The translations under genes were made by a program, and so were the position numbers. 35,236 bases of DNA from the IMG/VR virus record IMGVR_UViG_3300029305_011606, one strand, 5' to 3'. This DNA is from an uncultured virus (IMG/VR IMGVR_UViG_3300029305_011606) (Duplodnaviria > Heunggongvirae > Uroviricota > Caudoviricetes). The stretch's first letter is position 1; each line of letters starts with the position of its first letter. Of the stretch, positions 9,390 through 34,131 are shown piece by piece. Below the pieces are notes generated by a model. That model searched no databases and had not been told where the DNA came from. It saw only the letters and a list, made by a program, of their open reading frames with translations.

Positions 9390-9402
9390 GGAGGAGATCA
9401 TT

Positions 9403-12660: not shown

Positions 12661-12665
12661 GGACA

Positions 12666-12992: not shown

Positions 12993-12994
12993 TC

Positions 12995-13744: not shown

Positions 13745-13846
13745 GCCGTTTTGTCTAGAAGTGCATATTGACCTTACGTGTGAGTATGCACTTCTAAGAC
13801 ATGAATTTGAATATGAAGAAGAAATACGGAAAACGGAGGGGAGAAA

Positions 13847-15232
13847 ATGGGAGCAAGAGAAATTCACTTTCATAAGGCTGTTCACGCCTATAAACGTGGT
13901 TCTCATGTGTATTTTCTCAATTCTGCGAATGGCGCATGGGTTGCCATGCCATCGAGTTATGCAAAATGCTTGATGGAAGAACAGGATATTGTGAATCATA
14001 GTAAGGAATATATGTACGCCTATGATACCCTCGCTAATGCGTCAATTATACAAGATGTTCAACACGCGGAAAAGCAGAGTATATGCGAGCATAAGCCGTT
14101 GATTGTTCAGTTTCAAACAACAGGCGAGTGTAATTTACAGTGTATCTATTGTTTTAATGAGCCATCATTACGTACACATGTAATGAGTGAAACGATAATG
14201 AAGCAGTCGGTAGATTATGTCTATTCCCACCCTCAGGCTTGTTATGGAGTTCACTTTAGCATATATGGCGGAGAGCCCCTAATGCAACGAGATTTGCTTT
14301 ATAGTACGATCCGTTACATTAGAAAAAAGCAACCTGATAAGAATACAACTATTAGTGTTATAACCAATGGAACATTGTTAACGAGTGAGGACGTTTCCTT
14401 TTTCTTATCACAGAATGCAATAGTTAATGTCTCTTTTGATGGTTTGCCATGTTTTCAGGATCAGAACAGAAAGGATAAGAATGCGCGAAATACAAGTGAA
14501 CAAGTATTGAGTGCAATAGGAAAGCTTAAGCATCTTCCGAATTTGAGCATTCTGACAACAGTGACTCATGAAATGTCGTCCAAATTGTTAGACATTGTGC
14601 TCTTCGCAGAAGAAAATGGATTTCCGGGCGTAGAATTTATGCCACTTCGTATGTTAGGCACAGCGGAAAATAACAATTCGCTAACAGTTGATGTCAAAGC
14701 ATATATCAAAGCTATGATGGAAATTGTTGAAGCAATTGAGGAAAAACAGATTAAACAAACCGCTGTACGTGCGCTTTTAAGAATGCTCTATCCCTTGGAA
14801 ACTATGCAGACGGTACACGGCGAGATAGGATGTGCTCGATGTGGTGCGGGGCGTGATACTATTCTTATTACTTGCAGTGGTGAAATTAAGGGATGCGACA
14901 TGCTTCCAGAACATCATTCTCCGGTGATAGGAAATGTATGGGATGGAATAACGGCTTTGGAAAAGCTTGATTGTATTGTTCAACCTGGATATACTAAACT
15001 TAAAGCATGTTCTCAATGCATATGGAATAGATACTGCCGTAGCGGATGCACAGGAGCAAGTGCCAGTGACCAAGATGATTATTTGTCGAAGCATGAAATG
15101 ACTTGCATGATAAATAAAGCACTATATCCTTATTTGTTGGAAAAGCTTGCAACTGATGGAGGTGTGTTGCACGAATATTTCTTGACGCATACTACATCAA
15201 TCTATGACCACGATGGAGTAGCGAAGGAGTAA
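13847..15232 (+). CDS. Radical SAM/SPASM maturase 2 with an N-terminal extension (possible RRE)
   Basis: CNLQCIYC, YGGEP, ITNG, VSFDG and SPASM cysteines RCGAG...GC...CSQC.WNRYCRSGC...C. About 85 residues precede the rSAM core. Confidence 0.92.
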   Translation: MGAREIHFHKAVHAYKRGSHVYFLNSANGAWVAMPSSYAKCLMEEQDIVNHSKEYMYAYDTLANASIIQDVQHAEKQSICEHKPLIVQFQTTGECNLQCIYCFNEPSLRTHVMSETIMKQSVDYVYSHPQACYGVHFSIYGGEPLMQRDLLYSTIRYIRKKQPDKNTTISVITNGTLLTSEDVSFFLSQNAIVNVSFDGLPCFQDQNRKDKNARNTSEQVLSAIGKLKHLPNLSILTTVTHEMSSKLLDIVLFAEENGFPGVEFMPLRMLGTAENNNSLTVDVKAYIKAMMEIVEAIEEKQIKQTAVRALLRMLYPLETMQTVHGEIGCARCGAGRDTILITCSGEIKGCDMLPEHHSPVIGNVWDGITALEKLDCIVQPGYTKLKACSQCIWNRYCRSGCTGASASDQDDYLSKHEMTCMINKALYPYLLEKLATDGGVLHEYFLTHTTSIYDHDGVAKE

Positions 15233-15318: not shown

Positions 15319-15391
15319 GTTATAGACGCTATGTGATATTAATCAAAAGGTGTCGTATCCCAGTAAAAATCAAGAAGGAGACAAAGCGTAT

Positions 15392-16387
15392 ATGCCGCTA
15401 CAAATCATCAGAGAAAACATAGTCCATATGAAAACTGATGCTATCGTCAATACAACCAATACTTCCTTGCAGGCTGGTGGTGGCGTATGCGGCTCGATCT
15501 TTGACTCGGCTGGATATGAAGCTATGAAAAAAGCTTGCCAGACAATTGGACGCTGCGAAATCGGTATGGCGGTCATAACTCCTGGCTTTGATCTGCCTGC
15601 AAAGTATGTGATCCATACCGTTGGCCCTGCATGGCATGGCGGTACATATGGAGAGGAAACCATATTGCGCTCATGCTATCGTTCTGCGCTGATGCTGGCC
15701 GTAAGGAATCATTTAGCATCGATATCCTTTCCTCTGATTGCAACCGGCCTGTTGGGTTATCCAAAGGATGAAGCTTTGTCGGTGGCCGTATCAGAGATTT
15801 CGCTATTCTTGATGCGCCATGAATTGCTGGTCAATATTGTCGTATATGACAGGAACTCCTTTCAGCTGTCTCAAAAGCTATTTGACTCAGTTTCAAGCTA
15901 TATTGATGACAAGTATGTAGATGAACGCATGAATCTTGCACATCTACTGCCTGTGATGGGTATGCCAGCCGCTGCGTATATGCCCAAAACAGCTATTTTT
16001 GCCGGAGCTGCGTTACAAAGAAAACTTAAGGATGTTCTAAAACAGTTGGATGAGACCTTTTCTGAATCGTTAATCAGGATGATTGATGATAAGGGAAAAA
16101 CGGATGTAGAAGTTTATAAAAAGGCAAATATTGATCGGAAGCATTTTTCAAAAATCAAGAACAACAAAGAGTACAAGCCTAAAAAGGAAACTGCATTGGC
16201 TTTGGCTATTGGGCTGGAGCTTTCTCTGGATGAAACAAAGGATTTGCTCTCGCGCGCTGGCTTTGCCCTTTCACATGCGAGTAAGCAAGATTTGGTAGTT
16301 GAGTATTTCATTGAAATAGGAAACTATGATATCAACCAGATCAATGAAGCACTGTTTGCTTTCGATCAGCCTCAGTTAGGCGGCTGA
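15392..16387 (+). CDS. Macrodomain fused to a C-terminal XRE-like HTH (putative ADP-ribose-sensing regulator)
   Basis: Macro motifs DAIVNTTN..L.AGGGVC, YVIHTVGP and SISFPLIATG. The C-terminus VEVYKKANIDRKHFSKIK...P.KETALALAIGLEL is HTH-like. AAGGAG RBS. Confidence 0.88.
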   Translation: MPLQIIRENIVHMKTDAIVNTTNTSLQAGGGVCGSIFDSAGYEAMKKACQTIGRCEIGMAVITPGFDLPAKYVIHTVGPAWHGGTYGEETILRSCYRSALMLAVRNHLASISFPLIATGLLGYPKDEALSVAVSEISLFLMRHELLVNIVVYDRNSFQLSQKLFDSVSSYIDDKYVDERMNLAHLLPVMGMPAAAYMPKTAIFAGAALQRKLKDVLKQLDETFSESLIRMIDDKGKTDVEVYKKANIDRKHFSKIKNNKEYKPKKETALALAIGLELSLDETKDLLSRAGFALSHASKQDLVVEYFIEIGNYDINQINEALFAFDQPQLGG

Positions 16388-16390
16388 AAA

Positions 16391-16435
16391 TGTCGCCTGG
16401 CATGCGACCATTTTGAGAATGCGATGCGGTATAAT
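16391..16435 (+). promoter_or_regulatory. Palindromic operator and -10 box upstream of the vWA/NADAR genes
   Basis: TGTCGC-ctggcat-GCGACC (16391-16409), 20 nt, then TATAAT (16430-16435). The same architecture recurs at 26494. Confidence 0.65.
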
Positions 16436-16481
16436 ATGTGTGGCGGATATATTACACGAATTGCATTGGAGGAAATGCGTC

Positions 16482-17126
16482 ATGAAAAAAGATCTTACTG
16501 AATTGGTTTTTATTCTGGATCGTAGCGGCTCAATGTCTGGCCTTGAGAGCGATACTATCGGTGGCTATAATAGTTTGCTGGAAAAGCAGCGAAAGGAAGT
16601 TGGCGCTGCAATTATTACAACCGTGCTGTTTGACGATAAGTATGAGTTGCTTCATGACAGGATCGATATCAAGGGTGTTGCTCCTATTACAAACAAAGAT
16701 TACTATGTACGTGGCTGTACAGCGTTATTAGATGCAGTAGGCAAGACTGTTGCAAAGATTGAAAATGCGCAGCTGCATACCATGGAAATAGAGCGTCCTG
16801 AAAAAACGCTGGTAGTCATTACAACGGATGGTATGGAGAATTCCAGTCATGAGTTTTCCAAGGAGAAGGTCAAAACCTTGGTTGAACGAATGCAGAGTGA
16901 ATACGGCTGGGAATTCATATTCCTAGGGGCAAACATCGATTCTATCAAAACTGCTGGTGGTATCGGGATTGGAGCACACAGGACAGCGAACTACCATGCT
17001 GATCATGCAGGAACAGCTATGAACTTTAATGTTGCAGCAAATGTCATATCACAATTACGAACCAAACGCAGCGTAAGCGACGACTGGAAAGATGAAATTG
17101 ACCGTGACTATACTGAAAGAAAGTGA
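16482..17126 (+). CDS. von Willebrand factor A domain protein
   Basis: MIDAS motif FILDRSGSM, GCTALLDA and VVITTDG.EN. GGAGG RBS. Confidence 0.92.
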   Translation: MKKDLTELVFILDRSGSMSGLESDTIGGYNSLLEKQRKEVGAAIITTVLFDDKYELLHDRIDIKGVAPITNKDYYVRGCTALLDAVGKTVAKIENAQLHTMEIERPEKTLVVITTDGMENSSHEFSKEKVKTLVERMQSEYGWEFIFLGANIDSIKTAGGIGIGAHRTANYHADHAGTAMNFNVAANVISQLRTKRSVSDDWKDEIDRDYTERK

Positions 17127-17132
17127 TCATAT

Positions 17133-18125
17133 ATGATGTCCAATGAACCTATCACCCGCTTCCGACTTACCTACGACTTTTTGAGCAATTTCTATCCAAC
17201 TACGGTAATCATTGATGGTATAGAATACCTCAGCTCGGAAGCGGCGTTTCAGGCGTACAAGTGCAAGGATATCGGGGATCGGCATCAGTTTACCAAGATT
17301 TCTGCGGATGAATCCAAGCGGCTGGGGCGCAAGGTTGAGCTCCGTACTGACTGGGATCTGGTGAAGCTGGACGTGATGCGCAGAGTGGTTCGCGCAAAGT
17401 TCGAACAGCATCCGAACCTGGCGCAGTATCTGCTTGATACCGGGGATACCGATCTGATCGAAGGAAACACTTGGCACGATGTCTACTGGGGCGTGGATCT
17501 GAAAACCGGCGAAGGAGAAAACAATCTTGGAAAGATCCTGATGGCCTTGCGTCAAGAGTTCAGGGAGAATGGGCTTCCGAAGCCTGATGTCTCCTTGCAG
17601 AATTACATGACTTTTGAAGCAGACGATGGCATCTGCCTGCAATTCCGCGACATAACGGAAATCAAGTGCGACTGTATCGTAAATGCCGCCAATGAAACCC
17701 TGTTGGGCGGCGGTGGCGTGGATGCCGCGATTCATCGTGCAGCAGGCCCGGAACTGCTGGAGGAGTGCCGCACGCTGGGTGGGTGCGGCGTAACGGATGC
17801 GAAGCTGACCAAGGGTTATCGCTTACCTGCAAAGTATGTAATCCATACGGTTGGGCCGCACTATGGCGTTAAGGGAGACGCCGAATTGTTGGCGCTGACT
17901 TACCGTAATGTGCTGGATCTTGCGGCAGAGCGCGGTGTTCACAGCATCGCATTCCCTGCGATTTCTGCGGGCAAGTTCAGCTATCCCAAGGAGGCAGCAA
18001 CGAGCATTGCTGTACAGACCATTCGGGATTGGAAGAATGAACATTTGGATTATGAGATGCAAGTAATTCTGACTTGCGTGGATATGGGAATCTACAACGG
18101 TTTCCAGCAAGCATTGAAACAATGA
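17133..18125 (+). CDS. NADAR (YbiA-like) and macrodomain fusion protein
   Basis: NADAR: FLSNFY, SEAAFQAYK, AKFEQH, LIEGN.WHDVYWG, GENNLG.ILM. Macro: DCIVNAAN..LLGGGGVD.AIH.AAG, SIAFPAISAG. Confidence 0.93.
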   Translation: MMSNEPITRFRLTYDFLSNFYPTTVIIDGIEYLSSEAAFQAYKCKDIGDRHQFTKISADESKRLGRKVELRTDWDLVKLDVMRRVVRAKFEQHPNLAQYLLDTGDTDLIEGNTWHDVYWGVDLKTGEGENNLGKILMALRQEFRENGLPKPDVSLQNYMTFEADDGICLQFRDITEIKCDCIVNAANETLLGGGGVDAAIHRAAGPELLEECRTLGGCGVTDAKLTKGYRLPAKYVIHTVGPHYGVKGDAELLALTYRNVLDLAAERGVHSIAFPAISAGKFSYPKEAATSIAVQTIRDWKNEHLDYEMQVILTCVDMGIYNGFQQALKQ

Positions 18126-18145
18126 ACAAGTGAGAGGTGAGGAAC

Positions 18146-19237
18146 ATGATGCTTGCGCAAGAACAATGTATCGTAGTGCTGGGAGGCTCTTTTAACCCAC
18201 CTACGATTGCACATCTTCGCCTGATGGAAGCAGCTATGGAAGCTGTTGGCGCTGAAAAGGGCATCTTTGTTCCTGTAGGTGAAGCGTACCTGAAACGAAA
18301 GATGCGCAAATCTGAGGATCATATTCGACTGAGTGAACAGATGCGAATGGACATGCTTCAGGCCATGTGCGAAGGTCGACCTGAACTGCTGATCAGTGAT
18401 TTGGAGATTCAGAATCAACTGATCTATACCCGGCAGACTATGGGGTTGCTTCAGGAGGATTATCCGTCCGCGAAGCTCTACTTTATCGCAGGCGCGGATA
18501 AGCTTCCGATGCTGAGAAGTATGGCTTCAGGAAATGACTTTTTTAAACATTTTCGCATCGTGCTGTTTACGCGGGAGGGATTGGATTCGGAAGAGCTTGT
18601 TCGTCAAGATGAAAAACTGTCCCCCTTTGCATCCTCCTTTATTCACGCAAAACAACCGGAAGGCATGGATGGGATCAGCTCCACTGCCGTTCGGAAACTG
18701 ATTGCAAATCGGGAAACGGAGATGGCGTATCCTTATCTGCATGAGGATGTCTGGAAAATGATTCGTCACCTGACGCCTGATGATTTTCCGCCAGAGATCG
18801 AAAGATTCCAAGGGGAATACGAATTTCTTTCCAACAGCTACCCCTCACCCATTTTCTTTGATGGTTTGTCCTTCTCCTGTGCAGAGGCAGCTTTTCAGGC
18901 CGCGAAGTGTGAACTTCTCAGCGACAAAAAGCGCATTGCCCAAGGTGATGGCAGCCGGGCGAAGAGCATCGCGGCAAGGATCGAGCCGAAGCCGGGCTGG
19001 GAGGATGAAAAGCTCGACATCATGGAGGCGGTGCTGCGGGCGAAATTCACTCAGGCGTCTGAACTCGCCAAGAAGCTGATATCCACCGGCAATGCGCTCC
19101 TGATATATGGCAACAACAAAAAGGACTATTATTGGGGTAAGGATATGTACACCAACCGGGGTGAAAACCGTCTGGGACAGCTTCTGATGAAGCTGCGGTC
19201 AGAATTACAGGGTGAAACGGAGCGTGATATGCAATGA
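18146..19237 (+). CDS. NadD-like nicotinate/nicotinamide-nucleotide adenylyltransferase fused to NADAR
   Basis: NadD-like: GGSFNPPTIAH, YFIAGADK, ISSTAVR. C-terminal NADAR: FLSNSY, AEAAFQAAK, DYYWG, GENRLG.LLM. Confidence 0.9.
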   Translation: MMLAQEQCIVVLGGSFNPPTIAHLRLMEAAMEAVGAEKGIFVPVGEAYLKRKMRKSEDHIRLSEQMRMDMLQAMCEGRPELLISDLEIQNQLIYTRQTMGLLQEDYPSAKLYFIAGADKLPMLRSMASGNDFFKHFRIVLFTREGLDSEELVRQDEKLSPFASSFIHAKQPEGMDGISSTAVRKLIANRETEMAYPYLHEDVWKMIRHLTPDDFPPEIERFQGEYEFLSNSYPSPIFFDGLSFSCAEAAFQAAKCELLSDKKRIAQGDGSRAKSIAARIEPKPGWEDEKLDIMEAVLRAKFTQASELAKKLISTGNALLIYGNNKKDYYWGKDMYTNRGENRLGQLLMKLRSELQGETERDMQ

Positions 19238-19785
19238 AGCACAAGCTTGAAGAATTGATCCGACGCGTGGATCAGGGAGAAGAACTGAGCTTTGTCCTTT
19301 TCTGGGGCCACACCGAGAATCCTGGAAAGGTTACAAAAGCCTGTCTGAGCCAATGGTATCCGTGCCGTTTCGTCATTGACGATATTGAGTATTGCTGTAC
19401 GGAGCAGTACATGATGGCGCAGAAAGCTCTCCTGTTTGATGACAAGAAAACCTACGAGAAGATCATGGCATCCGAACATCCCAAGGAGATCAAAGCCCTA
19501 GGACGAGAGATCAGGAACTTTGAACAAAGCAAGTGGGACGAGCATAAATATCAGATCGTCCTGAACGGTAATATTGCAAAGTTCTCTCAGAACGAACGCC
19601 TCAGAGACTTCCTGCTGGGAACAGGTTTTGCCGTACTTGCAGAAGCAAGCCCCTACGACCGCATCTGGGGCATCCGCTTGTCGGCAGACGATCCGTTGGC
19701 AAAAGACCCGAAATGCTGGCAGGGCGAAAACCTTCTGGGCTTTGTGCTGATGGAAACGAGAGACATTTTGAGAAGACACGATTAG
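19234..19785 (+). CDS. Stand-alone NADAR family protein
   Basis: LFWGH, CLSQWY, EQYMMAQKA.LF.D, K.LGR, AEASPYDRIWG, GENLLG..LM. ATGA overlap with the upstream gene. Confidence 0.94.
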   Translation: MKHKLEELIRRVDQGEELSFVLFWGHTENPGKVTKACLSQWYPCRFVIDDIEYCCTEQYMMAQKALLFDDKKTYEKIMASEHPKEIKALGREIRNFEQSKWDEHKYQIVLNGNIAKFSQNERLRDFLLGTGFAVLAEASPYDRIWGIRLSADDPLAKDPKCWQGENLLGFVLMETRDILRRHD

Positions 19786-19793
19786 AGGTGACA

Positions 19794-21242
19794 ATGATGC
19801 AGAGAAAGGCTGCAACAGCCAGCGACTGGAAGACAACGCCCATGCCGGAAACGCATACGGAGTTTACTTTCCATCGCAGCTTTACGCAGGAGCAGATGGA
19901 GCTGCTCCGATATGGAAACATCCCCCAGGCTATGGAGGATAAGTGGTTCTGGTATTATGAGGATGACAAGCTATACATCCACCGAAGCTGGACGGGCTTT
20001 TGTATTTTCGTCGTAAGTTTCACACCGGGCAGCGATGAACTGCATGCACTGGTCAATCGAGATCCGGAGCAGTATCGCAGCACGGACGTGAATCAGGACG
20101 AGTATGAGCTGAATCGGCTTCTGACCTGGTGGACGCAGTCTGATTATGATCCGTACAATCAGTTCCTGGCAGATACCTATCGCGCGCTGCTTCCGCTGAT
20201 GCAAAAGGATCAAAAGCCGACCATTCAAGAGAAGAAGCAGGGCTGTCTGTATGGTGGTGCGGCAGGTGACGCGCTGGGATATCCGGTCGAGTTCATGAGC
20301 TTGGACGAAATTCAAGCAAAGTATGGGCCTGATGGAATCCAGTATTATGAACTGAAGGACGGAAAGGCGCGCATTTCGGATGATACGCAGATGCTGTTGT
20401 TCACGCTGGAGGGTATCTGCCTGTGGCAGGACAAGCTTAGGAAGGGGCATGACGGCACAAAGCTGAAGAATTGTCTATTTGACGCATATCGAGACTGGTT
20501 TTATACTCAGGTGAACGATGACCCACGCAAGGAGCGGCATAAGCCATGTACCCAGCTATATCTGATTCATGGCATGCATCGCAGCATGGCTCCCGGACTC
20601 ACCTGTATCCGCGCCCTGCGCAATAAGTGGCCGGGCAGTATTGAGAGCCCTCGTAATGATAGCAAGGGCAATGGCGGCGTAATGCGTGTTGCGCCCATCG
20701 GTTTCTATTTCCCTCGGAATATCTATTCGATGGAAGATGTCATGCAGATGGGCGCAGAGAGTGCGGCGCTCACGCACGGCCATCCGCTGGGTTACATCAG
20801 CGCAGCCATGATGGCGGCCCTTGTCAATGAATGTGTCTACGGCACGTCTGAAACGCTCAAGGATGCGGTGTTGCTGTCGCTGGATGCCACGTCGAAGATG
20901 TTTGTGCATATCCCGGAAGTACACGAGTTGCACACACTCGTTACTGCCGCTATGGAACTGGCCCAGGATAATGGTGATGCTGTTGCCCATATCGCCATGC
21001 TTGGTCACAGCGCATGTGCTGAATCCACCATGGCTATCGCGATCTACTGCGCACTCCGATATGAAGATAGTTTCGATCAGGCGATCCGGACGGCAGTCAA
21101 TTTCAATGGCGACAGTGATACCGTCGCTGCCGTGACCGGCAACATCCTGGGCGCATGGAAGGGCATCAAGTGCATCGACCAGAGATGGATCGAGCCGCTG
21201 CATCTGGATGAATATCTGAAGGTTCTGGAAGTTTATTCCTAA
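19794..21242 (+). CDS. ADP-ribosylglycohydrolase (ARH/DraG family) with an uncharacterised N-terminal domain
   Basis: G.A.GDALG.PVEF, SDDTQM, GNGGVMR.AP, LTHGHP and GDSDT.AA.TG. GAGGTG RBS (start 19794 or 19797). Confidence 0.92.
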   Translation: MMQRKAATASDWKTTPMPETHTEFTFHRSFTQEQMELLRYGNIPQAMEDKWFWYYEDDKLYIHRSWTGFCIFVVSFTPGSDELHALVNRDPEQYRSTDVNQDEYELNRLLTWWTQSDYDPYNQFLADTYRALLPLMQKDQKPTIQEKKQGCLYGGAAGDALGYPVEFMSLDEIQAKYGPDGIQYYELKDGKARISDDTQMLLFTLEGICLWQDKLRKGHDGTKLKNCLFDAYRDWFYTQVNDDPRKERHKPCTQLYLIHGMHRSMAPGLTCIRALRNKWPGSIESPRNDSKGNGGVMRVAPIGFYFPRNIYSMEDVMQMGAESAALTHGHPLGYISAAMMAALVNECVYGTSETLKDAVLLSLDATSKMFVHIPEVHELHTLVTAAMELAQDNGDAVAHIAMLGHSACAESTMAIAIYCALRYEDSFDQAIRTAVNFNGDSDTVAAVTGNILGAWKGIKCIDQRWIEPLHLDEYLKVLEVYS

Positions 21243-21269
21243 GAGCATCGAAATAACTGCGATATTCAA

Positions 21270-21300
21270 GACCTCTTGCCGGAGAACCCGGCAAGAGGTC
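21270..21300. repeat. Perfect 13-bp inverted repeat directly 5' of the tRNA-like gene
   Basis: GACCTCTTGCCGG-agaac-CCGGCAAGAGGTC, with no T-tract on either strand. Confidence 0.85.
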
Positions 21301-21304
21301 ATAT

Positions 21305-21381
21305 GGGGAGGAACGCGATGCGGTACGTCGCCCCCGTCTTATAAGCGGGCCTTCAGGGTTCGACTCCCTGTCTCCCTACCA
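21305..21381 (+). tRNA. Non-canonical tRNA-Ile(UAU) or tRNA-like RNA with encoded CCA
   Basis: Acceptor stem GGGGAGG/TCTCCCT followed by A-CCA; D arm GCGA(TG)...(CG)TCGC; anticodon arm CCCGT-CT[TAT]AA-GCGGG; 4-nt variable loop; T arm CAGGG-TTCGACT-CCCTG. Confidence 0.82.
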
Positions 21382-21418
21382 TTTTAAATATATACGATCA
21401 ATACAGGAGGAAGCCATC

Positions 21419-22039
21419 ATGAGCAATGGAAAGACCTTTGATCACGAGAAGATGTACACCTATATCAGGGGCTATGCCTCCGGAGCAAAGATGGATCAGG
21501 CCCTTCGCGCACTGTCCTTTGCGCGTGCTAAGCATGAAGGACAGAAGAGAAAGAGCGGCGAGCCCTATATCACGCATCCTCTGACAATGGCCTGCAATGC
21601 GCTGAGCATGGGGATTCGGGACGATGCGGTCATTGCAACGATCCTTCTGCACGATGTCTGTGAGGACTGTGGTGTCGCTATTGCCGAACTGCCAGTCAAT
21701 GCCGAGGTTAAGCGCAGCGTCGAACTGATGACTTTCTCTGTCATGGATGGAGAGACGAAGGACATGGCCAAGGTCAGATACTATAATATGATGCTTGAAA
21801 GCCGTCCGGCTACGTTGTGCAAGCTGATTGACCGATGCCATAATGTGTCGAGCATGGCGGGGACTTTCTCAAAGGAAAAGCTGATCGCCTATACTGAGGA
21901 GACGCGCAGATTTGTGCTTCCTCTGCTGAAAAAGGCGAAGGTCGCCTACCCTAACGACGCTGACATATTGTTTGTGCTGAAGTATCACATTTGCAGTGTA
22001 GTGGATTCCATTGAAGCAACCATGATGGCCTACGAATGA
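21419..22039 (+). CDS. RelA/SpoT-type HD hydrolase, stand-alone (small alarmone hydrolase/Mesh1-like)
   Basis: [26 protein letters not shown] and [17 protein letters not shown]. Confidence 0.88.
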
Positions 22040-22051
22040 GGAGGATGCAAA

Positions 22052-22372
22052 ATGATCGACTATGAGAAGCTGGTTCGTTTTGAAGGAGACTCACTCATCC
22101 CTGTTATGAAACTGCTATCTGACAATCCCAATGCATCGATTGGAGAAATACAGCATGCGCTTAACCTCGGATACGCGCGTGTAGGAAGAATCAAGGAATT
22201 GCTGAGTGAGGTCGGAATTTATGCCAAGCCTCCAAGGAAATATAAAATGATTCTCGGTGAAGATGGCAAACGTCATAGACAGTACCTTCCGTTGGAAGTA
22301 CTTATATCGCAGGAAGAATTCAAGGAATGTATCAGGATGTTGGAGCGCCGGAAGACAGAAGAAAAACTGTAA
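22052..22372 (+). CDS. Small protein resembling a stand-alone FtsK/SpoIIIE gamma winged-helix domain
   Basis: ASIGEIQHALNLGYARVGRIKELLSEVGI...EVLISQEEF resembles the gamma-domain pattern AS.S.LQR...IGY.RA.R....LE..G....EVL. GAGGAGG RBS. Confidence 0.62.
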   Translation: MIDYEKLVRFEGDSLIPVMKLLSDNPNASIGEIQHALNLGYARVGRIKELLSEVGIYAKPPRKYKMILGEDGKRHRQYLPLEVLISQEEFKECIRMLERRKTEEKL

Positions 22373-22401
22373 TATAGAAAGCGACGAGGTGAAGCAATCA
22401 T

Positions 22402-23571
22402 ATGGAGCTGAAAGTAAATCTATACAATCCGTCTTGTGCAGATGGCAAGTATTATGTGACTGCGCGCGGATATATGGTTGCTTCTCTGTATTGGGCGGAT
22501 CAGGACGGCCCTCTGGCTGACTGGACCGCTCTCGCCCATCTTCCGCTAGATGTGTCAGGCCGGGCGAGCTTCTCTTATACGGGCGGCCGGGCAGTTCCGC
22601 CCGAGGCAACCCATGTTGCGGCGAAGTTGATTTCTGCTGATTTTCAGCGGCAAGAAACACTGCTTATTCCACTTCCCAAGGGATACTCAGTTCCAACCTT
22701 TGAAGCAGATACAACCTTTGCTGTTATGAGCGATCTGCATACAGCGGCGAAGCCGGGCAGAATCCGGCGCGCACTTGGCTATGCCGCTGAAGCTGATTGT
22801 GTTCTGCTGCCAGGTGATCTGACGAATGACGCAACACCGGAACAGTTTGGCTGTCTGTGGCAGCTGATCGAAGAAGTGATTCCTGACACGCCTCTGCTGA
22901 CGGTGTGCGGCAATCATGATTTCCCCATTAAGCCTCTTCCAATGGTTTGGCAGAACATCGATCACTACTACGCTTTTCAGGAAAAGATGCTGAACCGGGC
23001 CGTACAACTGGGTGTGTGCTGTACGGCGGATGAAAGCGGCGCGTACAGCGCGACGCATCGAGGAATAGAGATTCTTGGACTCAATGCTGTATCGCATTGG
23101 CGGAGGTTTACATTCCCAGAGGGCAAGCAGCTGGATTGGCTGAAGGCTCAGTTGAGTAAGAGCACGGACAGGCGAATCGTGCTGTGTCATGCGCCGCTGA
23201 TCAAGCACAATCCGCAGCGAAGCGAAGGTGAAGCAGCGTATCTCAGCCGGGACGCGCAGCTTCAGCAGATCATCGATGACGCAGGAAATGTGATCTTTCT
23301 GTCCGGGCATACGCATATTTCCCTGAATGAAACAGGCGGCTGTGTGGAGTATGACGCAGAGCGAGGCAATCTTTATCTGAACGATTCCAGTATCACGCCG
23401 ACCATGCCCTGCAAACAGGAGATTCTTGCTGATCGGGAATGGGCAGATGGCGCAGTATGCTATCTCTCGCTGAACAAATCAGAAATAGAGATCAAGGCCC
23501 GCTGTCTGTCGAACGGAAAGTGGATTGCACGAGGATATTACCGATATGGCGTATCCTCCACCAAATCATGA
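22402..23571 (+). CDS. Calcineurin-like metallophosphoesterase with an N-terminal extension
   Basis: SDLH, PGDL, GNHD, LCHAP and SGHTH motifs. Confidence 0.92.
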   Translation: MELKVNLYNPSCADGKYYVTARGYMVASLYWADQDGPLADWTALAHLPLDVSGRASFSYTGGRAVPPEATHVAAKLISADFQRQETLLIPLPKGYSVPTFEADTTFAVMSDLHTAAKPGRIRRALGYAAEADCVLLPGDLTNDATPEQFGCLWQLIEEVIPDTPLLTVCGNHDFPIKPLPMVWQNIDHYYAFQEKMLNRAVQLGVCCTADESGAYSATHRGIEILGLNAVSHWRRFTFPEGKQLDWLKAQLSKSTDRRIVLCHAPLIKHNPQRSEGEAAYLSRDAQLQQIIDDAGNVIFLSGHTHISLNETGGCVEYDAERGNLYLNDSSITPTMPCKQEILADREWADGAVCYLSLNKSEIEIKARCLSNGKWIARGYYRYGVSSTKS

Positions 23572-23590
23572 ACAACTGGAGATGAAATAG

Positions 23591-24310
23591 ATGGTTATGA
23601 CCGATTTACATATGCATGTTGTCCCACATGTGGATGACGGCTCAAAAGATATGGAAATGTCGCTGGAAATGCTGAAAATGGCCTATGCCCAAGGAGTCAG
23701 GAAGGTTCTTTGTACTTCACACAGCAGCTGGCGGCCGGAAGCAACTGTGAGGTACAGCAACAATTTTGAGAAACTCAAGGCTGAAGCGGAGACGGTTCTT
23801 CCTGAAATGCAGCTGTTCACAGGCTGTGAGGTATTGTTTGCCAAGCGCACCCTTCAGGACGTTCTGCGCAAGCTCGATGACGGGGAGTTTCTCACCCTGA
23901 ATGGCACGAATGCAGTGCTGACCGAGTTCCAGTCCTATGCGTCTGCGGATGAGGTAGAACAGGTCGCAAAGAAGCTGCTTTCAAGAAAATATGTGCCTGT
24001 GGTTGCACATGCTGAGCGCTGCGACGCATTCGAGGATGAGGGGTTCGTGAAGCGACTGGTTGAGGCTGGCTGTCTGCTTCAGGTCAATCTGTACAGTCTG
24101 GTTAAGGAACCGGACGAGCAACTCAAGGTGCGCGCCCACAGGATGGTGGATGCACACCAGGTATCCTTCGTAGGCTCGGATGCTCACGGTTCCGAACGCC
24201 GCGCGCCCGAAGTGAAAGATGGCATGGCGTATCTCTATGAGAACACCGATCAGGCATATGCGGATGCTGTGTGCTTTGGCAATGCCGAGAAGTTGCTGAA
24301 CCTTTGTTAA
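23591..24310 (+). CDS. CpsB/CapC-like PHP-family protein-tyrosine phosphatase
   Basis: DLHMHVVP.VDDG, CTSH, GCE, VAHAER, LQVN and GSDAH. Confidence 0.9.
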   Translation: MVMTDLHMHVVPHVDDGSKDMEMSLEMLKMAYAQGVRKVLCTSHSSWRPEATVRYSNNFEKLKAEAETVLPEMQLFTGCEVLFAKRTLQDVLRKLDDGEFLTLNGTNAVLTEFQSYASADEVEQVAKKLLSRKYVPVVAHAERCDAFEDEGFVKRLVEAGCLLQVNLYSLVKEPDEQLKVRAHRMVDAHQVSFVGSDAHGSERRAPEVKDGMAYLYENTDQAYADAVCFGNAEKLLNLC

Positions 24311-24341
24311 AATGAACCGGAACGGAGAGAGGATGGGATGT

Positions 24342-25757
24342 ATGAATTTCTTGAAGCTGTTTGAACGGTTTTCTCACGGAAAGCAGAATCAATCACAAGG
24401 TTCGAGTAAAACAGAACTCAGTACACCAGTTCAGCCCTCTCCTGTCAAACAGAGGTATCCAGAAGGGACGAGACTTTGCGACATGCTGAGTGATTTGATT
24501 TCTTTGGTTCAGGATGGACGGCTTGTGATTCCTGATGGGATGTCGGAGATCCCGAATAGACTGTTTGACGGCTTTGTCCACGGAAAAGAGAGCGGTGTCA
24601 ATCGACTGGTTTCGATTGTAGTCCCCGGAACCGTCAAAAGCATCGGTGAACGCGCCTTTGGAAACTGTAAAAATCTCGAAGAAGTCACTCTCTGCGAAGG
24701 GGTCGAGAGGATTGGATCAAATGCGTTCACGGGATGCGAGAAGCTCAAGCGGCTTCAACTTCCTGCCAGCGTCAAAGAAATCGATGGAAGGGCCTTTATT
24801 CACTGTGGCATCAACGAACCTGTATTCAGCGCAGATGGTAAAGTGCTCATCTGCTATCCGCCCGAATGGGAAAATGCAGAATACACTGTTCCGGAGGGCG
24901 TAGAAAAAATCGTATGGGGCGCATTCTGGGACGCAAAACATCTAAAAACGGTAACGCTTCCTCAAAGTTTGAAGCTGATTTGCAGCAGAGCCTTTATTGA
25001 ATGCGGTTTTACGGAGATCACAGTCCCTCAGAATGCAGAGATAGAGGATGACGCATTTTCCTTTTTCAATCGTGGCATTCGGATTATCCGTGAAAACAAA
25101 TTGAATGCTTTGGAAGAGAAAATGGAGTATTGCAGAGTCAATGGCATGTCTTTTTTAGGCCGCCAGCGAATGAAGCTTCCGCAAGCACAGTATTGGAAGG
25201 ATGAAGAATTCCAATTGCTCACGAAGCAATGTGCAGCGGGTGATGTAGGCGCAATGGAGCGAATGAGCGACTACTTCTTCGAAAAAGCCGCGCATGAAGA
25301 AGAAAGTGTCTTTTATCAATGCGCTGCACAGTTTTGGCGGACGAGGGCATACCGATACGGAAGCGAAGAGGCAAAAGAGTACCTGCTTGCATGGTGCGAA
25401 AACAATCCGAATGCGCGTATGGCTTCTCCCGGCCTTGATGAAAACCTAAGTGGTACGGCATACGGAGAACTTCTGAATGCGCTCGGTTTTCCGTTCTTCG
25501 AATCCGACAGAGAATACAGTCTGTCAGGCGTAGATAAGGATGGCGTTGTGGAAGTATCTTCTTGGGAAAGTGATGAAGGCCCGGATGAGGATGGCTATGG
25601 AAGAGAAGAATTCTACGACTGGTGGTATCTCAATGAATACCTAGTTCTTCCTGAAGGGGCTGGATATATTCACAGCTACTCACATCTTGACAAGCGATGC
25701 AATGAGAAGAAGTTTCTTTCCCTGCATGATCAGGTGGCGATAATGAACAAAATCTGA
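24342..25757 (+). CDS. BspA-type leucine-rich repeat protein with an uncharacterised C-terminal region
   Basis: Repeats such as VPGTVKSIGERAFGNCKNLEEVTL, GVERIGSNAFTGCEKLKRLQLP and SVKEIDGRAF. Start uncertain (24312, 24333 or 24342). Confidence 0.87.
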   Translation: MNFLKLFERFSHGKQNQSQGSSKTELSTPVQPSPVKQRYPEGTRLCDMLSDLISLVQDGRLVIPDGMSEIPNRLFDGFVHGKESGVNRLVSIVVPGTVKSIGERAFGNCKNLEEVTLCEGVERIGSNAFTGCEKLKRLQLPASVKEIDGRAFIHCGINEPVFSADGKVLICYPPEWENAEYTVPEGVEKIVWGAFWDAKHLKTVTLPQSLKLICSRAFIECGFTEITVPQNAEIEDDAFSFFNRGIRIIRENKLNALEEKMEYCRVNGMSFLGRQRMKLPQAQYWKDEEFQLLTKQCAAGDVGAMERMSDYFFEKAAHEEESVFYQCAAQFWRTRAYRYGSEEAKEYLLAWCENNPNARMASPGLDENLSGTAYGELLNALGFPFFESDREYSLSGVDKDGVVEVSSWESDEGPDEDGYGREEFYDWWYLNEYLVLPEGAGYIHSYSHLDKRCNEKKFLSLHDQVAIMNKI

Positions 25758-25798
25758 ACCAAACGAATCGGAATCTGTTTGATACAAAGGTGATGAAC

Positions 25799-26479
25799 AT
25801 GAAAGCAGAAATCCTGAGCGCTGCCTATGTTCGCGGCTATGCGGAACGAACTGGCACGCCTGAGATCCCGGAATCTATAAGAGAAAAGCAGCTTGATGAT
25901 CTTACGGACGAGGAATTGGTGCAGCTTTACGCTGTCGGTAAAAAGGCCGAGCTGAAGATGTACCGCTTTAAGAATCACGAAGATTTACCTCGTGTACATA
26001 AGGTGCTTGGTTTTTTGCGAAGCATCTGGCCGGAGAATCTGCTGGATGTAGGCAGCGGACGCGGTGTATTCCTGTTTCCGTTTCTTTGTGCATTCCCAGC
26101 CACGCCTGTCACATCCGTTGATCTGCTGGATTATCGTATGGAGTTTCTAAACGACATCCGGCGCGGCGGAATTGATCAGTTAACTGCTATGCAGATGGAC
26201 ATATGCAGCGGCACGCTTCCTGAGAAGTCATTTGATGTGGTCACGATGCTGGAGGTGCTGGAGCATATCCCGGATGTGCAGAAGGCTGTTTGCAGCGCAG
26301 TACGGCTGGCAAAACGTTATGTCGTGGTCACTGTGCCGTCCAAACCGGACAATAACCCGGAGCATATCCATCTGCTGACAAAGGATCGCCTGACTGAACT
26401 ATTCGCCAACGCTGGATGTACAAGGCTGCAATTTGACGCCGTTCCGGGACATCTGTTCATGGTAGCTACTATCAAATAA
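25799..26479 (+). CDS. Class I SAM-dependent methyltransferase
   Basis: LLDVGSGRG, TSVD and SFDVVTMLEVLEH. AAGGTGA RBS supports ATG 25799. Confidence 0.9.
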   Translation: MKAEILSAAYVRGYAERTGTPEIPESIREKQLDDLTDEELVQLYAVGKKAELKMYRFKNHEDLPRVHKVLGFLRSIWPENLLDVGSGRGVFLFPFLCAFPATPVTSVDLLDYRMEFLNDIRRGGIDQLTAMQMDICSGTLPEKSFDVVTMLEVLEHIPDVQKAVCSAVRLAKRYVVVTVPSKPDNNPEHIHLLTKDRLTELFANAGCTRLQFDAVPGHLFMVATIK

Positions 26480-26493
26480 AGATACGATTTAAT

Positions 26494-26538
26494 TGTCGCT
26501 TGCTGGGCGACCCAATTCAAAACAAAATATGCTATCAT
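26494..26538 (+). promoter_or_regulatory. Palindromic operator and extended -10 box upstream of the RNA ligase
   Basis: TGTCGC-ttgctgg-GCGACC (26494-26512), 20 nt, then TATCAT (26533-26538) preceded by TGc. Confidence 0.65.
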
Positions 26539-26586
26539 ATTGTTGGCGGAACTTATACCCTTTGAAAGAAAGATAGGTGAAACAGC

Positions 26587-27405
26587 ATGGATTTCAGCAT
26601 CATCAAATATCCCCGCACGCCCCATATCGAGGGTTCGCGTCTGCAACCGGGGGACGAGGATCTTTCTCAGATCCCATTTGAGAATATTGCAGGCAAATAT
26701 CTGGTTATCGAGGAGAAGATCGACGGTGCGAATTCCGCTGTTTCCTTCGACGATCAGGGGAATCTGCTTTTGCAGAGCAGAGGCCACTATCTGCATGGCG
26801 GTTATCGCGAGAAGCATTATAACCTGCTTAAACAGTGGGCCGGCGTCCATCGGGACGCGCTGTGGAGCGTACTTGGATGCCGCTACATCATGTATGGCGA
26901 GTGGATGTACGCCAAGCATACGATCTATTATGATTGCCTGCCGCACTACTTTATGGAGTTCGATGTGTTGGATCGGGAGACGGATCGTTTCCTGGATACG
27001 CCTTCCCGTCATGCGCTGCTGGCAGAGCTTCCTGTGGCTCATGTGCCTATCCTGAAGACAGGTGTTTTGAAGAACAAAGAAGAACTGCTGGGGCTGCTTG
27101 GCCCCTCCCTCTACATTTCAGATACGCATATCGAACATTTGCGCGAGACCGCCCGCCGCGAAAAGCAGGACGAGGAGCGCATCTGCCGGGAAACGGATGC
27201 CAGCACCACGATGGAGGGACTCTACATCAAGGTCGAGGAAAACGGCGAGGTGACGGAGCGCGTGAAGTTTGTGCGCCAGAGCTTTTTGCAGACTGTGGAA
27301 CAGTCCAACTCACACTGGCTGGAGCGCCCCATCATCCCCAATGGTATCATTTGTTCCGTGGCTGATCTGTTCGCTCCCACCTTATGCACCAAGGATGGTG
27401 AGTGA
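26587..27405 (+). CDS. ATP-dependent RNA ligase family protein
   Basis: KYPRTPH, motif I EKIDGAN, GEW, FMEFDV, motif IV EGLYIK and motif V RVKFVR. Confidence 0.9.
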   Translation: MDFSIIKYPRTPHIEGSRLQPGDEDLSQIPFENIAGKYLVIEEKIDGANSAVSFDDQGNLLLQSRGHYLHGGYREKHYNLLKQWAGVHRDALWSVLGCRYIMYGEWMYAKHTIYYDCLPHYFMEFDVLDRETDRFLDTPSRHALLAELPVAHVPILKTGVLKNKEELLGLLGPSLYISDTHIEHLRETARREKQDEERICRETDASTTMEGLYIKVEENGEVTERVKFVRQSFLQTVEQSNSHWLERPIIPNGIICSVADLFAPTLCTKDGE

Positions 27406-28577
27406 GCATGCCGAAGCTGGAAACCTTACTGAATACCTGTCCACATGCGCCTGATTTCGTCTGGAATTGGTCGAGACTAATGAATACGCCTGTCGGAAAC
27501 TTGCTGTCCAGGATGGATGAAATTCAGCAGAATCCTGTATGGCATGGAGAAGGCAATGTTGGCCAGCATATAAGGCTGGTATGTGAGACACTGGCGGCTG
27601 ATCCTGCGTTTCGTGCGCTGTCTGTGCGTAGTCAGCAAGAGCTATCCGTGGCGGCGCTGCTGCATGATATCGGGAAGATACCCAACACGAAGCTGGAGGA
27701 TGGTCAATGGGTCTCACCCAATCACAGCACGACCGGCGCACGGATGGCACGCGAGCTACTGTGGAAAGAGTTCGACCTGTGTGGGACGCCGGAGCACCAG
27801 TCTTTCCGGGAAACGGTGTGCCTGCTGATCCGCAATCACATGTTGCCCGGACATATTCTGGATCAGGCCGATCCTGAAAAGCGCCTGCTTCGTATGGCTG
27901 CGGATAAGGAGCTGTGTCATGACTTCTCTATTGAGCAGCTTTGCATATTAGCGCGGGCAGACGTTCAAGGGCGAATCGCCCCGGATACGGCGGAACTGCT
28001 TGAAAAGGTGGAACTGTGCCGTCAGGAGGCGGAAGCTGCAGGCTGTCTGTATGAGCCGGGAAGTTTTGCGGATGCCTATACCCAGAGAGCGTACTTCCAA
28101 GGCCGCAAGGTATGGCGGGAGCAGCATCTCTACAACGACGGCTGGGGTGAGGTGATCTTGCTTTCGGGGCTTCCTGGAACGGGCAAAGACACATGGATCA
28201 GGGAACACGCTTCTCATTTGCCGGTGGTCAGCCTGGACGAGCTTCGCAAGATCATGGACGTATCGCCTACTGACGAGCAGGGGCGAGTTGCGCAGGTTGC
28301 AAAAGAGCAGGCTCGGAAGTATCTGCGCGCCAAGCAATCGTTCATCTGGAATGCCACAAATCTGACTGAACAAATGCGCAGCAAGCTCATCAGTCTGTTT
28401 GAGGATTATGGCGCAGCGGTGCGCATCGTATATCTGGAAACGGGCTGGGAGGAGAATCTGCGCCGCAATGCAGAGCGTGCGGAAGCGGTACCTGAACATG
28501 TGGTAAAGGATATGCTGGGTAAGCTGGTTCCGCCACAGCGGTGGGAAGCACAGCATGTAGAATGGCACTGCGTATAA
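27402..28577 (+). CDS. HD phosphohydrolase fused to a P-loop (polynucleotide kinase-like) domain
   Basis: HD domain: WHGEG.V..H, LLHDIGK, RAD. Kinase: LSGLPGTGKDT, SLDELR, WNATN. GTGA overlap with the ligase stop. Confidence 0.9.
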   Translation: MSMPKLETLLNTCPHAPDFVWNWSRLMNTPVGNLLSRMDEIQQNPVWHGEGNVGQHIRLVCETLAADPAFRALSVRSQQELSVAALLHDIGKIPNTKLEDGQWVSPNHSTTGARMARELLWKEFDLCGTPEHQSFRETVCLLIRNHMLPGHILDQADPEKRLLRMAADKELCHDFSIEQLCILARADVQGRIAPDTAELLEKVELCRQEAEAAGCLYEPGSFADAYTQRAYFQGRKVWREQHLYNDGWGEVILLSGLPGTGKDTWIREHASHLPVVSLDELRKIMDVSPTDEQGRVAQVAKEQARKYLRAKQSFIWNATNLTEQMRSKLISLFEDYGAAVRIVYLETGWEENLRRNAERAEAVPEHVVKDMLGKLVPPQRWEAQHVEWHCV

Positions 28578-28598
28578 GTGACAAGAGGTGATTTACGC

Positions 28599-29684
28599 AT
28601 GAAGAATTTGGACAAGTACAGAGGCTGCCTGATCGGCGGTGCCGTGGGCGATGCTCTGGGCTACGCTGTAGAGTTTTTGCGCTGGCGAGACATTCAGAAA
28701 AGATATGGAGCGAATGGTATTCAGGCATATGATCTGGATGTTGAAGAGGGCGGGGCCATCATATCGGACGATACCCAGATGACGCTCTATACGGCGGTCG
28801 GAATGATGGTTGCAGATGTACAGGGTAAAAGAGAACAGATGGTGGACTACATTTACAGAGCCTATCTGGATTGGTACTACTGTCAGCGGAATCCCATGAG
28901 CATGCCGCCCCACAATATTTCCTGGATTTCAGAGCTTTTTGAAATGCACGAACGGCGAGCACCGGGAAATACCTGCATGAGCGCGCTGTGTTCCGGAGAG
29001 AAGGGAACCCTGGAGAATCCTATCAACAACAGTAAAGGCTGCGGCGGCGTGATGCGTGTCGCACCCATTGGGTTGTATTTCGATTATCAGGATGGAACGG
29101 CTTCCCGAATCGGCGCGGAAGCGGCAGCTCTGACGCACGGTCACGAACTGGGATATATCCCTGCGGCTGCTCTTGCCTATCTGATTTCGCTCGTTTTACG
29201 CGATGAGCATATTACTTTGCGAAACGCTGTGCTGATGATGCGCAGGTCTTGGCAGATCGATAGCCTGTTCAAAACCGATGAATACCGGCAGTCCTTTAAT
29301 CGGTTGATAGATGCAGCCCTTGGACTTTCATTGACCGCTGAAGATGATGTTGCGGCGATCGGCCAGCTTGGCGAAGGTTGGGTCGGTGATGAGGCGCTGG
29401 CGATTGCGCTGTATTGTGCCTTGAAATATGAAAATGACTTTGAAAAGGCCATTATCGCATCCGTCAACCACAGCGGTGACAGTGATTCTACCGGCGCGAT
29501 CACTGGTAATATCCTTGGCGCGTATCTGGGGTTGGAGCGTATCCCGAAGAGATTTCTTGAGCATCTGGAACTCAGAAACATCATTTTGGAAGTGGCAGAC
29601 GATCTCTGCCGGGTTCAGGATAACGCGTATACAGTCGACTCAGATCCTATGATGGATGAGAAATATATGAACCATCTATCCTAA
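28599..29684 (+). CDS. ADP-ribosylglycohydrolase (ARH/DraG family)
   Basis: GCLIGGAVGDALG..VEF, SDDTQM, RAPGNTC, SKGCGGVMRVAP and GDSDSTGAITG. GAGGTG RBS. Confidence 0.95.
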   Translation: MKNLDKYRGCLIGGAVGDALGYAVEFLRWRDIQKRYGANGIQAYDLDVEEGGAIISDDTQMTLYTAVGMMVADVQGKREQMVDYIYRAYLDWYYCQRNPMSMPPHNISWISELFEMHERRAPGNTCMSALCSGEKGTLENPINNSKGCGGVMRVAPIGLYFDYQDGTASRIGAEAAALTHGHELGYIPAAALAYLISLVLRDEHITLRNAVLMMRRSWQIDSLFKTDEYRQSFNRLIDAALGLSLTAEDDVAAIGQLGEGWVGDEALAIALYCALKYENDFEKAIIASVNHSGDSDSTGAITGNILGAYLGLERIPKRFLEHLELRNIILEVADDLCRVQDNAYTVDSDPMMDEKYMNHLS

Positions 29685-29720
29685 AACAAATGACATTCAT
29701 ACGAAAGGCGGTATCTGAAA

Positions 29721-30773: not shown

Positions 30774-30813
30774 AGCCTGGTTATTTCGTCGAGATAATGG
30801 AGCGGGGTGAAGC

Positions 30814-31938: not shown

Positions 31939-31954
31939 TTAGTGAGGTGAGAAT

Positions 31955-32425: not shown

Positions 32426-32473
32426 TGTTCAGAGAATCCCATGCTGTCCCGTGAAAAGAGGTGCTTCCCATTC

Positions 32474-32974: not shown

Positions 32975-32993
32975 ACTACGAGGAGTGATATGC

Positions 32994-34115: not shown

Positions 34116-34131
34116 AAGCATGTGCTTTTAT
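34112..34131. repeat. 9-bp inverted repeat with a 2-nt spacer
   Basis: ATAAAAGCA-tg-TGCTTTTAT, overlapping the stop codon of the SEL1 gene. Confidence 0.5.

Follow-up and report, generated by a model that had tools for sequence, protein, structure and literature searches.

What is a tRNA gene with the anticodon UAU doing on its own between the protein-coding genes of a repair cluster, and is it kept there for its anticodon or for its shape? The question is raised by positions 21305 to 21381 (+ strand) of the IMG/VR record IMGVR_UViG_3300029305_011606, a stretch of 35,236 nucleotides of DNA from an uncultured virus (Caudoviricetes), which we analysed at its full length and refer to as the window. 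The element at these positions is a genuine tRNA-type gene of non-canonical build, with an extended D stem that is real. Comparison with a sister allele from a metagenome and with a variant from a public sequencing run indicates that selection acts on its four-helix fold in at least two lineages. Our leading interpretation, put forward tentatively and at somewhat less than an even chance, is that the element is an operon-embedded, phage-style substitute tRNA-Ile(UAU) whose fold would also serve a role that does not depend on decoding.

The assignment as a tRNA-type gene rests on the ARAGORN call, the Rfam match, the fold and the pair-preserving variation described below. An original prediction, made from the sequence alone, had placed a 77-nt tRNA with a UAU anticodon here, and both an exact ARAGORN call and an Infernal-type check against the Rfam tRNA model bear it out. 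ARAGORN reported tRNA-Ile (anticodon tat) at 21305–21381 on the + strand as its sole tRNA in the 35,236 bases, and in a 501-base local scan the Rfam tRNA family RF00005 matched 21305–21378 with 34.8 bits (gathering score 29, E = 1.2 × 10−5), covering model positions 1–71 of 71; a scan of the whole window with fast filters did not list the element. All of the regular features named in the prediction are present in the sequence, namely a perfect T arm (CAGGG-UUCGACU-CCCUG), the loop CU-UAU-AA with A37 and A38 in an anticodon arm CCCGU-CUUAUAA-GCGGG, the discriminator A73 and an encoded CCA. Its three oddities likewise reappear in the Rfam alignment and the fold: the 7-bp acceptor stem has G-U pairs at its two ends (G1-U and G7-U), the linker is AAC (A8-A9 and an inserted C) in place of U8-N9, and the D stem, GCGAUG/CGUCGC in the minimum-free-energy fold, has 6 bp around a 5-nt loop, CGGUA, in which GG is present. 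The variable loop has 4 nt. The stem lengths, U33, the purine at position 37, the T-Psi-C-type loop and a score above the curated threshold are those of an elongator tRNA. What the element lacks is the canonical core, that is, U8, a 2-nt linker, a D stem of 3–4 bp, a D loop of 7–11 nt, and A14 and A21, for which the Rfam alignment has U and G, respectively. Taken alone, the 77 nt have an unremarkable folding energy (z = −1.37; 17 of 200 shuffles fold as well); the intergenic region 21243–21418 folds as a hairpin and the cloverleaf with −62.9 kcal/mol (z = −3.68; 0 of 200 shuffles as good).

UAU tRNAs had been described as rare in the original prediction. This stands for bacterial chromosomes, in which tRNA-Ile(UAU) is unusual according to PMC3575796, but not for viral contigs. 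The 17-nt anticodon arm of the element (CCCGT-CTTATAA-GCGGG as DNA) was found, identical at 17 of 17 positions, in 23 IMG/VR stretches, 19 of which carry it inside ARAGORN calls of tRNA-Ile(tat); the viral tRNAs that share it have at least 12 different bodies, and many of them lie in large phage tRNA arrays. The RF00005 scores of 11 viral tRNA-Ile(UAU) genes with the identical arm ranged from 37.7 to 71.6 bits (median 64.7). Among 12 distinct viral sequences sharing the arm, 9 have T8 and one, L027, has A8-A9, the script leaving 2 unresolved at this position. The L027 gene (5969–6043, − strand) is a tRNA-Ile(UAU) in an array of 27 tRNAs, with a 5-bp D stem, a 6-nt D loop and a score of 37.7 bits. 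Because L027 shares the A8-A9 and long-D-stem build, the odd core has a precedent among presumably working phage tRNAs. Judged from such comparisons, the element combines an anticodon arm typical of viral tRNA-Ile(UAU) with an atypical body, for which L027 is the one viral parallel found. Several further tRNAs of the L027 array also score low (35.9–50 bits). A group of viral contigs, comprising L016, L025 and L036 (90-nt ARAGORN calls) together with L017 and L034 (uncalled), carries the same UAU arm, separated from the T arm by roughly 25 inserted nucleotides (GGATTATAATGCCGTAATTGGTCCATGT), along with a poor acceptor stem, and may represent an intron-containing or long-variable-arm tRNA-like gene.

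The sister allele lies at L040, the only syntenic locus found, which can be aligned to the window over about 6.1 kb (90.8% identity, but only 75% in the tRNA slot). The comparison is a thin one of two full sequences, in a structure-guided alignment set by hand from their folds, which replaced an alignment by MAFFT and RNAalifold that had misaligned the acceptor and anticodon arms. Of the 23 pairs, 15 are unchanged, 4 have undergone compensatory double changes (1 in the acceptor stem, 2 in the anticodon stem and 1 in the T stem), 2 have switched from G-U to A-U, and 2 are broken, both at helix ends. Changes affect 12 of the 46 stem positions, close to the neutral rate given by the four-fold degenerate sites of the flanking genes (21.6%, 121/559), and 10 of these 12 keep pairing. 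The stems thus change at about the neutral rate yet keep their pairs. The chance of such pair retention over all four helices is 9 × 10−5 with unbiased substitutions, 4 × 10−4 at a 2:1 transition bias and 6 × 10−3 with transitions only; without the anticodon arm, which might have been swapped as a block, it is 0.019 under transition bias. The D stem and loop differ at 1 of 17 nt, the fifth D-stem pair having switched from U-G to U-A, and the T loop differs at 1 of 7 positions.

The fold is conserved between the two alleles and the anticodon end is not. The anticodon loop of L040 is CAAGAG (or a tetraloop AAGA), is not 7 nt long and has neither U33 nor UAU; the copy further has a 2-nt variable loop, AA as its linker and GCU in place of CCA. 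Neither ARAGORN nor Rfam called a tRNA in the L040 copy, the best match being tRNA-Sec with 19.1 bits (E = 0.29), and the copy alone folds as a four-arm cloverleaf (−30.6 kcal/mol, z from −3.66 to −4.39). Since the anticodon loop, UAU and CCA are absent while the fold is kept, decoding is not what keeps the L040 copy, and that the anticodon is not conserved there argues against a function resting on AUA decoding alone. The two alleles amount to a natural experiment that separates the tRNA as decoder from the tRNA as shape.

Further variants came from public sequencing runs, in which the stretch 20600–22100 was matched, among the matches listed, by 24 runs from 15 studies of animal gut or faeces. 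We examined four of these, all as assembled contigs; two of the four, X8 and X21, gave no contig that covers the element. The X15 contig has 10 differences and 3 gap positions over 21270–21429. Among the 7 differences that are listed, 4 fall in the gene, all in stems and all preserving pairs (G-C to G-U, C-G to U-A by two changes, and U-G to U-A); the listed differences include no loop change, and as far as they go the UAU loop is kept. In the X24 contig, from an RNA library, both flanks match and 79 other letters replace 89, which by arithmetic is the length of the L040-type allele, so that this allele exists in a second data set. A check by covariation, which the original prediction had named as a way to recognise a decayed pseudo-tRNA or an integration scar, speaks against such a relic, the helices being kept by compensatory changes in both L040 and X15.

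The setting of the element is that of an operon. A perfect 13-bp hairpin with the loop AGAAC lies at 21270–21300 (+ strand); it was found by a scripted hairpin scan, was not listed by the inverted-repeat tool, and is present in L040 with 3 changes (2 to wobble pairs and 1 mismatch). The hairpin is GC-rich, stops 4 nt (AUAU) short of the 5′ end of the tRNA, is followed by no U tract and was not called as an intrinsic terminator; by the script scan it is the only perfect hairpin of at least 10 bp (loops of 3–8 nt) in the window. On the other side, a 37-nt spacer (21382–21418, + strand), recognised from the sequence and by site prediction, carries AGGAGG before the ATG of the next gene. Prediction of sigma-70-like promoters and intrinsic terminators found none at the element.

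Under our leading interpretation, the ancestor would have been a phage-type tRNA-Ile(UAU) that became embedded in an operon. The element would lie in one long co-oriented transcription unit of a mobile damage-reversal array and would be co-transcribed with its neighbours; RNase P and a 3′ tRNA-processing nuclease would excise the tRNA, leaving the upstream mRNA with the 13-bp hairpin at its 3′ end. The tRNAs of the window allele and the X15 variant would be charged with isoleucine and read AUA without lysidine, each serving as a substitute tRNA borne by the element. In L040 the fold would have been retained after loss of the anticodon through a second role, for which the processing site inherent in any tRNA within an operon is the most economical candidate; such a processing role would explain why that allele kept its fold.

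Several observations weigh against this interpretation. The element lacks U8, A14 and A21, which are near-universal in working tRNAs, and its 34.8 bits lie under the scores of all 11 viral genes with the same arm; of the 107 tRNA hits in the corresponding loci, just 3 score lower. The L040 allele lacks a 7-nt anticodon loop, UAU and CCA but folds even better (z = −4.39), and the comparison with it involves only the two full sequences. Three of the 10 differences in X15 are unlisted and could fall inside the gene, and the four runs, being assembled contigs, are silent on RNA ends, strand and charging. The codon that the tRNA would read is also rare near the element (7 of 95 Ile codons), and the seven ORFs (open reading frames) with orthologues in both loci contain 7 AUA codons in their window versions, compared to 10 in those of L040.

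A serious rival, although one that we consider unlikely, is that the element is a trans-acting tRNA mimic, that is, a decoy, bait or scaffold that works outside translation on toxins recognising tRNA shape or on the repair enzymes of the island itself, with an anticodon end expected to vary from allele to allele. A mimic would account for a conserved fold with an anticodon that is not conserved, for the non-canonical core and for the low tRNA score, and the near-invariant D arm and T loop would preserve the tRNA elbow, although their conservation is not significantly below neutral divergence (p = 0.08). The anticodon and variable loops differ between the alleles at 8 of 11 positions when gap positions are counted, compared to the neutral 21.6% (p = 4 × 10−4), and at 5 of 11 when only mismatches are counted (p = 0.068). 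The surrounding genes undo ADP-ribosylation, phosphorylation and RNA breaks, and toxins that act on Ile-tRNA exist, as PMC6125619 describes for ItaT. Conversely, the anticodon arm of the window allele is letter-for-letter that of viral tRNA-Ile(UAU), and A73-CCA is encoded, neither of which a mimic would obviously need, and a decoy would be in competition with the entire tRNA pool.

A purely cis-acting processing or stability module, in which RNase P and a 3′ nuclease would split the long transcript at the element, a protective hairpin would remain at the 3′ end of the upstream mRNA and the excised RNA itself would be functionless, is likewise improbable in our estimate. The unique 13-bp hairpin 4 nt before the 5′ end in both alleles would fit such a module, as would the lack of a predicted promoter or terminator at the element and the persistence of the helices despite changes in the anticodon loop, the variable loop and the 3′ tail. 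The X24 contig from the RNA library runs from the upstream gene through the L040-length element into the downstream gene, which points weakly in the same direction, as DNA in the library could give the same contig. An RNase P substrate needs little beyond the acceptor and T arms, and the anticodon stem, kept by two compensatory double changes, and the near-invariant D arm go beyond that need. A module of this kind would also leave the perfect anticodon loop and CCA of the window allele to be accounted for, and the changes of the hairpin in L040 (2 wobble pairs, 1 mismatch) show no clear selection on it.

A gene 2.2 kb downstream may bear on the isoleucine identity of the tRNA. The CpsB/CapC-type PHP phosphatase encoded at 23591–24310 on the + strand (239 aa; PF19567, E = 9 × 10−56) has no isoleucine codon, where 13.4 Ile would be expected (p ~ 10−6). 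This was the strongest depletion among 660 ORF-by-residue tests, the other 32 ORFs having 3.5–10.2% Ile. The L040 orthologue (7056–7772) also has 0 Ile, as do 6 proteins at 92% identity or more among 90 database relatives; relatives at 86% and 74% identity have 3 and 5 Ile, respectively, one at 44% has 1 in 249 residues, and most others have 2–10%. Each of the 9 alignment columns in which 30% or more of 76 ordinary relatives carry Ile is occupied by V, L, T, P or A in the Ile-poor proteins. This pattern suggests that the phosphatase has been selected to stay translatable when isoleucine decoding fails, and as circumstantial evidence it favours the Ile identity of the tRNA. We only infer this connection, and in L040 the Ile-free enzyme occurs without a UAU loop. 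The Ile-free neighbour hints at isoleucine decoding as the target of attack. Were this correct, it would offer evidence of a new kind on the threats that such islands counter. A more elaborate reading, which we regard as decidedly improbable, would combine these observations: the element would be a tRNA-shaped bait or decoy, its anticodon end swapped between alleles, within a mobile antidote toolkit against attacks on isoleucine decoding, in which the look-alike soaks up the toxin or replaces its target and the Ile-free phosphatase acts as a first responder that can be translated without Ile-tRNA.

Least probable, at a very low level, is a functionless decaying pseudo-tRNA or integration scar, which would fit the low tRNA score, the non-canonical core, the L040 copy without anticodon loop and CCA, and the lack of a homologue for the loop-anchored pattern in IMG/VR, metagenome contigs or GTDB genomes, but is at odds with pairing kept at 10 of 12 changed stem positions at neutral-level divergence, with listed X15 changes that all preserve pairs, with an L040 copy that folds at z = −4.39, with the absence from the window of a direct repeat of the tRNA 3′ part and of any repeat family that includes the element, and with recombinases that are only of the serine type and lie 19 kb away.

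We further compared the supply of AUA codons across the window. AUA accounts for 94 of 628 Ile codons in the ORFs of the window and is much commoner in its AT-richer left part, with shares of 9–39% in the block 2776–15232 vs. 0–22% further right. With 10 AUA codons in the orthologous ORFs of L040 against 7 in the window, AUA has not been purged in L040, the allele without the anticodon. A role of the tRNA in supplying AUA decoding to the nearby genes of the island was set aside on these grounds, AUA being rare there and not purged in L040.

The original prediction had also named the adjacent alarmone hydrolase as a possible partner of the element, and this did not hold up in general. Among 14 viral loci with HD_4 relatives, we found 0 tRNAs. 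In 80 metagenome loci with relatives of the hydrolase gene (the best 80 of 482, protein identity 96% to 45%), ARAGORN found 4 tRNAs (Arg, Val, Arg and Met), none of them for Ile and none within 600 nt of the hydrolase gene. A T-loop-like motif within 400 nt upstream of that gene was present in 1 of the 80 (L040), in a scan to which L091 contributed no upstream sequence and several loci fewer than 400 nt. As the element is carried by only one of the 80 metagenome loci and by none of the 14 viral ones, any partnership with the hydrolase gene would be specific to this island and not a general rule, and a specific functional pairing with the alarmone-hydrolase-like gene was set aside.

Searches for other copies of the element gave little. 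Exact and loop-anchored DNA patterns found no other copy in IMG/VR or metagenome contigs, and the loop-anchored pattern gave one chance match, without a tRNA, in GTDB genome contigs. The 26-nt 3′ part of the element was found a single time in the window and in none of 100 shuffles. A blastn search with the slot and its surroundings found no match in phage and plasmid records. Against plasmids, an 8-kb query recovered nothing but short Macro-domain matches (1–3% coverage), and no phage match of the ADP-ribosylglycohydrolase protein in tblastn exceeded 41.6% identity.

The neighbourhood was annotated from Pfam, PHROGs, PADLOC and NCBIfam for 33 ORFs. Nearly all long ORFs lie on the + strand, many ORFs match PHROG families, and no phage structural genes were found in the 35-kb window with Pfam and PHROGs; the proteins of the neighbouring genes are found on 12–67 contigs in Logan, ENA and JGI, and contigs with identical proteins reach 110 kb. 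The far left (53–2444) encodes two serine recombinases, and the left part (GC 0.40–0.43) encodes LeoA/LeoBC-like GTPases, two radical-SAM/SPASM proteins and a HerA-like ATPase. Its AT-richer block at 2776–15232 (+ strand), in which the GTPases are of the dynamin type and the ATPase is a HerA/FtsK-like protein of 1092 aa accompanied by a putative zinc peptidase, looks like a defence or peptide-modification module fused to the array of reversal enzymes. The right part (GC ~0.5) begins with genes for a Macro protein, NADAR + Macro, NMNAT-like + NADAR, NADAR and an ADP-ribosylglycohydrolase, after which the tRNA follows. Downstream of the tRNA come a RelA/SpoT-type HD hydrolase, a calcineurin-like phosphoesterase, the PHP phosphatase, an LRR protein, a methyltransferase, an RNA ligase, an HD + Pnkp-like kinase, a second ADP-ribosylglycohydrolase, a 2H-like + DUF1810 protein and a low-molecular-weight phosphatase. 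The repair gene cluster in which the original prediction had located the tRNA is therefore correctly named, being a co-oriented array of ADP-ribose-removing, phosphatase and RNA-repair genes. Over 15350–35236 (+ strand), this array of "undo" functions concentrates three unrelated families of ADP-ribose hydrolases (Macro twice, NADAR three times and ADP-ribosylglycohydrolase twice) and at least 5 phosphoesterase types (HD, calcineurin-like, PHP, low-molecular-weight PTP and a weak DSP-like match at 32441–32974), and also holds the 2H + DUF1810 protein, the RelA/SpoT hydrolase and the RNA ligase-kinase pair. According to PMC9503650, phages counter tRNA-cleaving nucleases by two means, namely repair genes (ligase, 2H, Macro and NADAR) and tRNAs of their own, explicitly including phage-borne tRNAs that substitute for cleaved host tRNAs, and PMC10264068 describes phage NAD/ADP-ribose and RNA-repair counter-measures along the same line; the gene content of the window matches these.

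The gene upstream of the tRNA (19713–21242, + strand) encodes the ADP-ribosylglycohydrolase of 509 aa (PF03747, E = 1.2 × 10−67). No Pfam family matched its residues 1–176 at E up to 1, and its first 175 residues have a 51%-identical relative on the viral contig L038. As listed, its ORF is overlapped by 73 nt by the NADAR ORF at 19234–19785, and its true start may lie further downstream. The downstream gene (21419–22039, + strand) encodes the RelA/SpoT-type HD protein, which has a hydrolase domain only (HD_4, E = 1.1 × 10−9); it matches only the hydrolase part of an NCBIfam spoT_relA subfamily (73.6 bits) and resembles a small alarmone hydrolase. At 26587–28577 (+ strand), matches in Pfam, PHROGs and NCBIfam identify the RNA ligase (PF09414) and, after it, a fusion of an HD phosphohydrolase with a P-loop Pnkp-like kinase; the two constitute a heal-and-seal pair for RNA repair. 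Compared with the window, L040 carries about 900 additional bp (6021–7004) between the calcineurin-like phosphoesterase and the Ile-free phosphatase, an insertion with two small ORFs that contain hydrophobic stretches.

How does the element compare with known systems? In tRNA-Sec (RF01852), the D stem is long, the D loop is short and a core of the U8-A14 type is absent, and the element resembles it in its 6-bp D stem, very short D loop and lack of such a core. It differs from tRNA-Sec in its 7/5 stems (not 8/5 or 9/4), its 4-nt variable loop in place of a long variable arm and its anticodon UAU instead of UCA, and the L040 copy, with its 19.1 bits, is far under the gathering score of 47 of the tRNA-Sec model.

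Among RNAs that resemble tRNAs without being decoders are the YrlA Y RNA modules found by RNA-repair genes, the mascRNA signal for RNase P and the pseudo-tRNA tRNA-Other of Bacillus cereus. The element shares with these a tRNA-shaped fold, an anticodon end that is dispensable in at least one allele, RNA-repair genes nearby and a stable structure just upstream of the would-be RNase P site; in contrast to them, the window allele keeps every anticodon-arm feature of a decoding tRNA. The likeness to Y RNA-type mimics drawn in the original prediction found no footing: no Y RNA model matched at E up to 10 on 21100–21600, no other Rfam family matched there at E < 0.1, and there is no Ro/TROVE domain among the 33 ORFs by Pfam. 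The mascRNA model matched the T arm only (14.9 bits vs. a gathering score of 42.5).

The tRNA-Ile2(UAU) of Mycoplasma mobile reads AUA without TilS, as stated in PMC3575796, and the element shares with it UAU, A37 and A38, so that reading of AUA without lysidine would be possible in principle. Mycoplasma-type tRNA-Ile2(UAU) is chromosomal and essential, has a canonical cloverleaf and occurs in genomes without tilS, whereas the core of the element is non-canonical. Phage tRNA-Ile(UAU) genes and substitute tRNAs beside repair genes share with the element the 17-nt anticodon arm, the setting on a mobile-looking element beside RNA ligase, kinase-phosphatase, 2H, Macro and NADAR genes (described for phages in PMC9503650) and, in the phage copy L027, A8-A9 and a long D stem. 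The element differs from them in standing singly between protein genes and not in a tRNA array, in a window without phage structural genes, in scoring below 11 of 11 viral copies, and in having a sister allele without the anticodon. Substitute tRNAs and tRNA repair are already known as phage counter-measures; a lone, deviant tRNA-Ile(UAU) within an operon of reversal enzymes, from animal gut bacteria, would place such a counter-measure outside the phage tRNA array.

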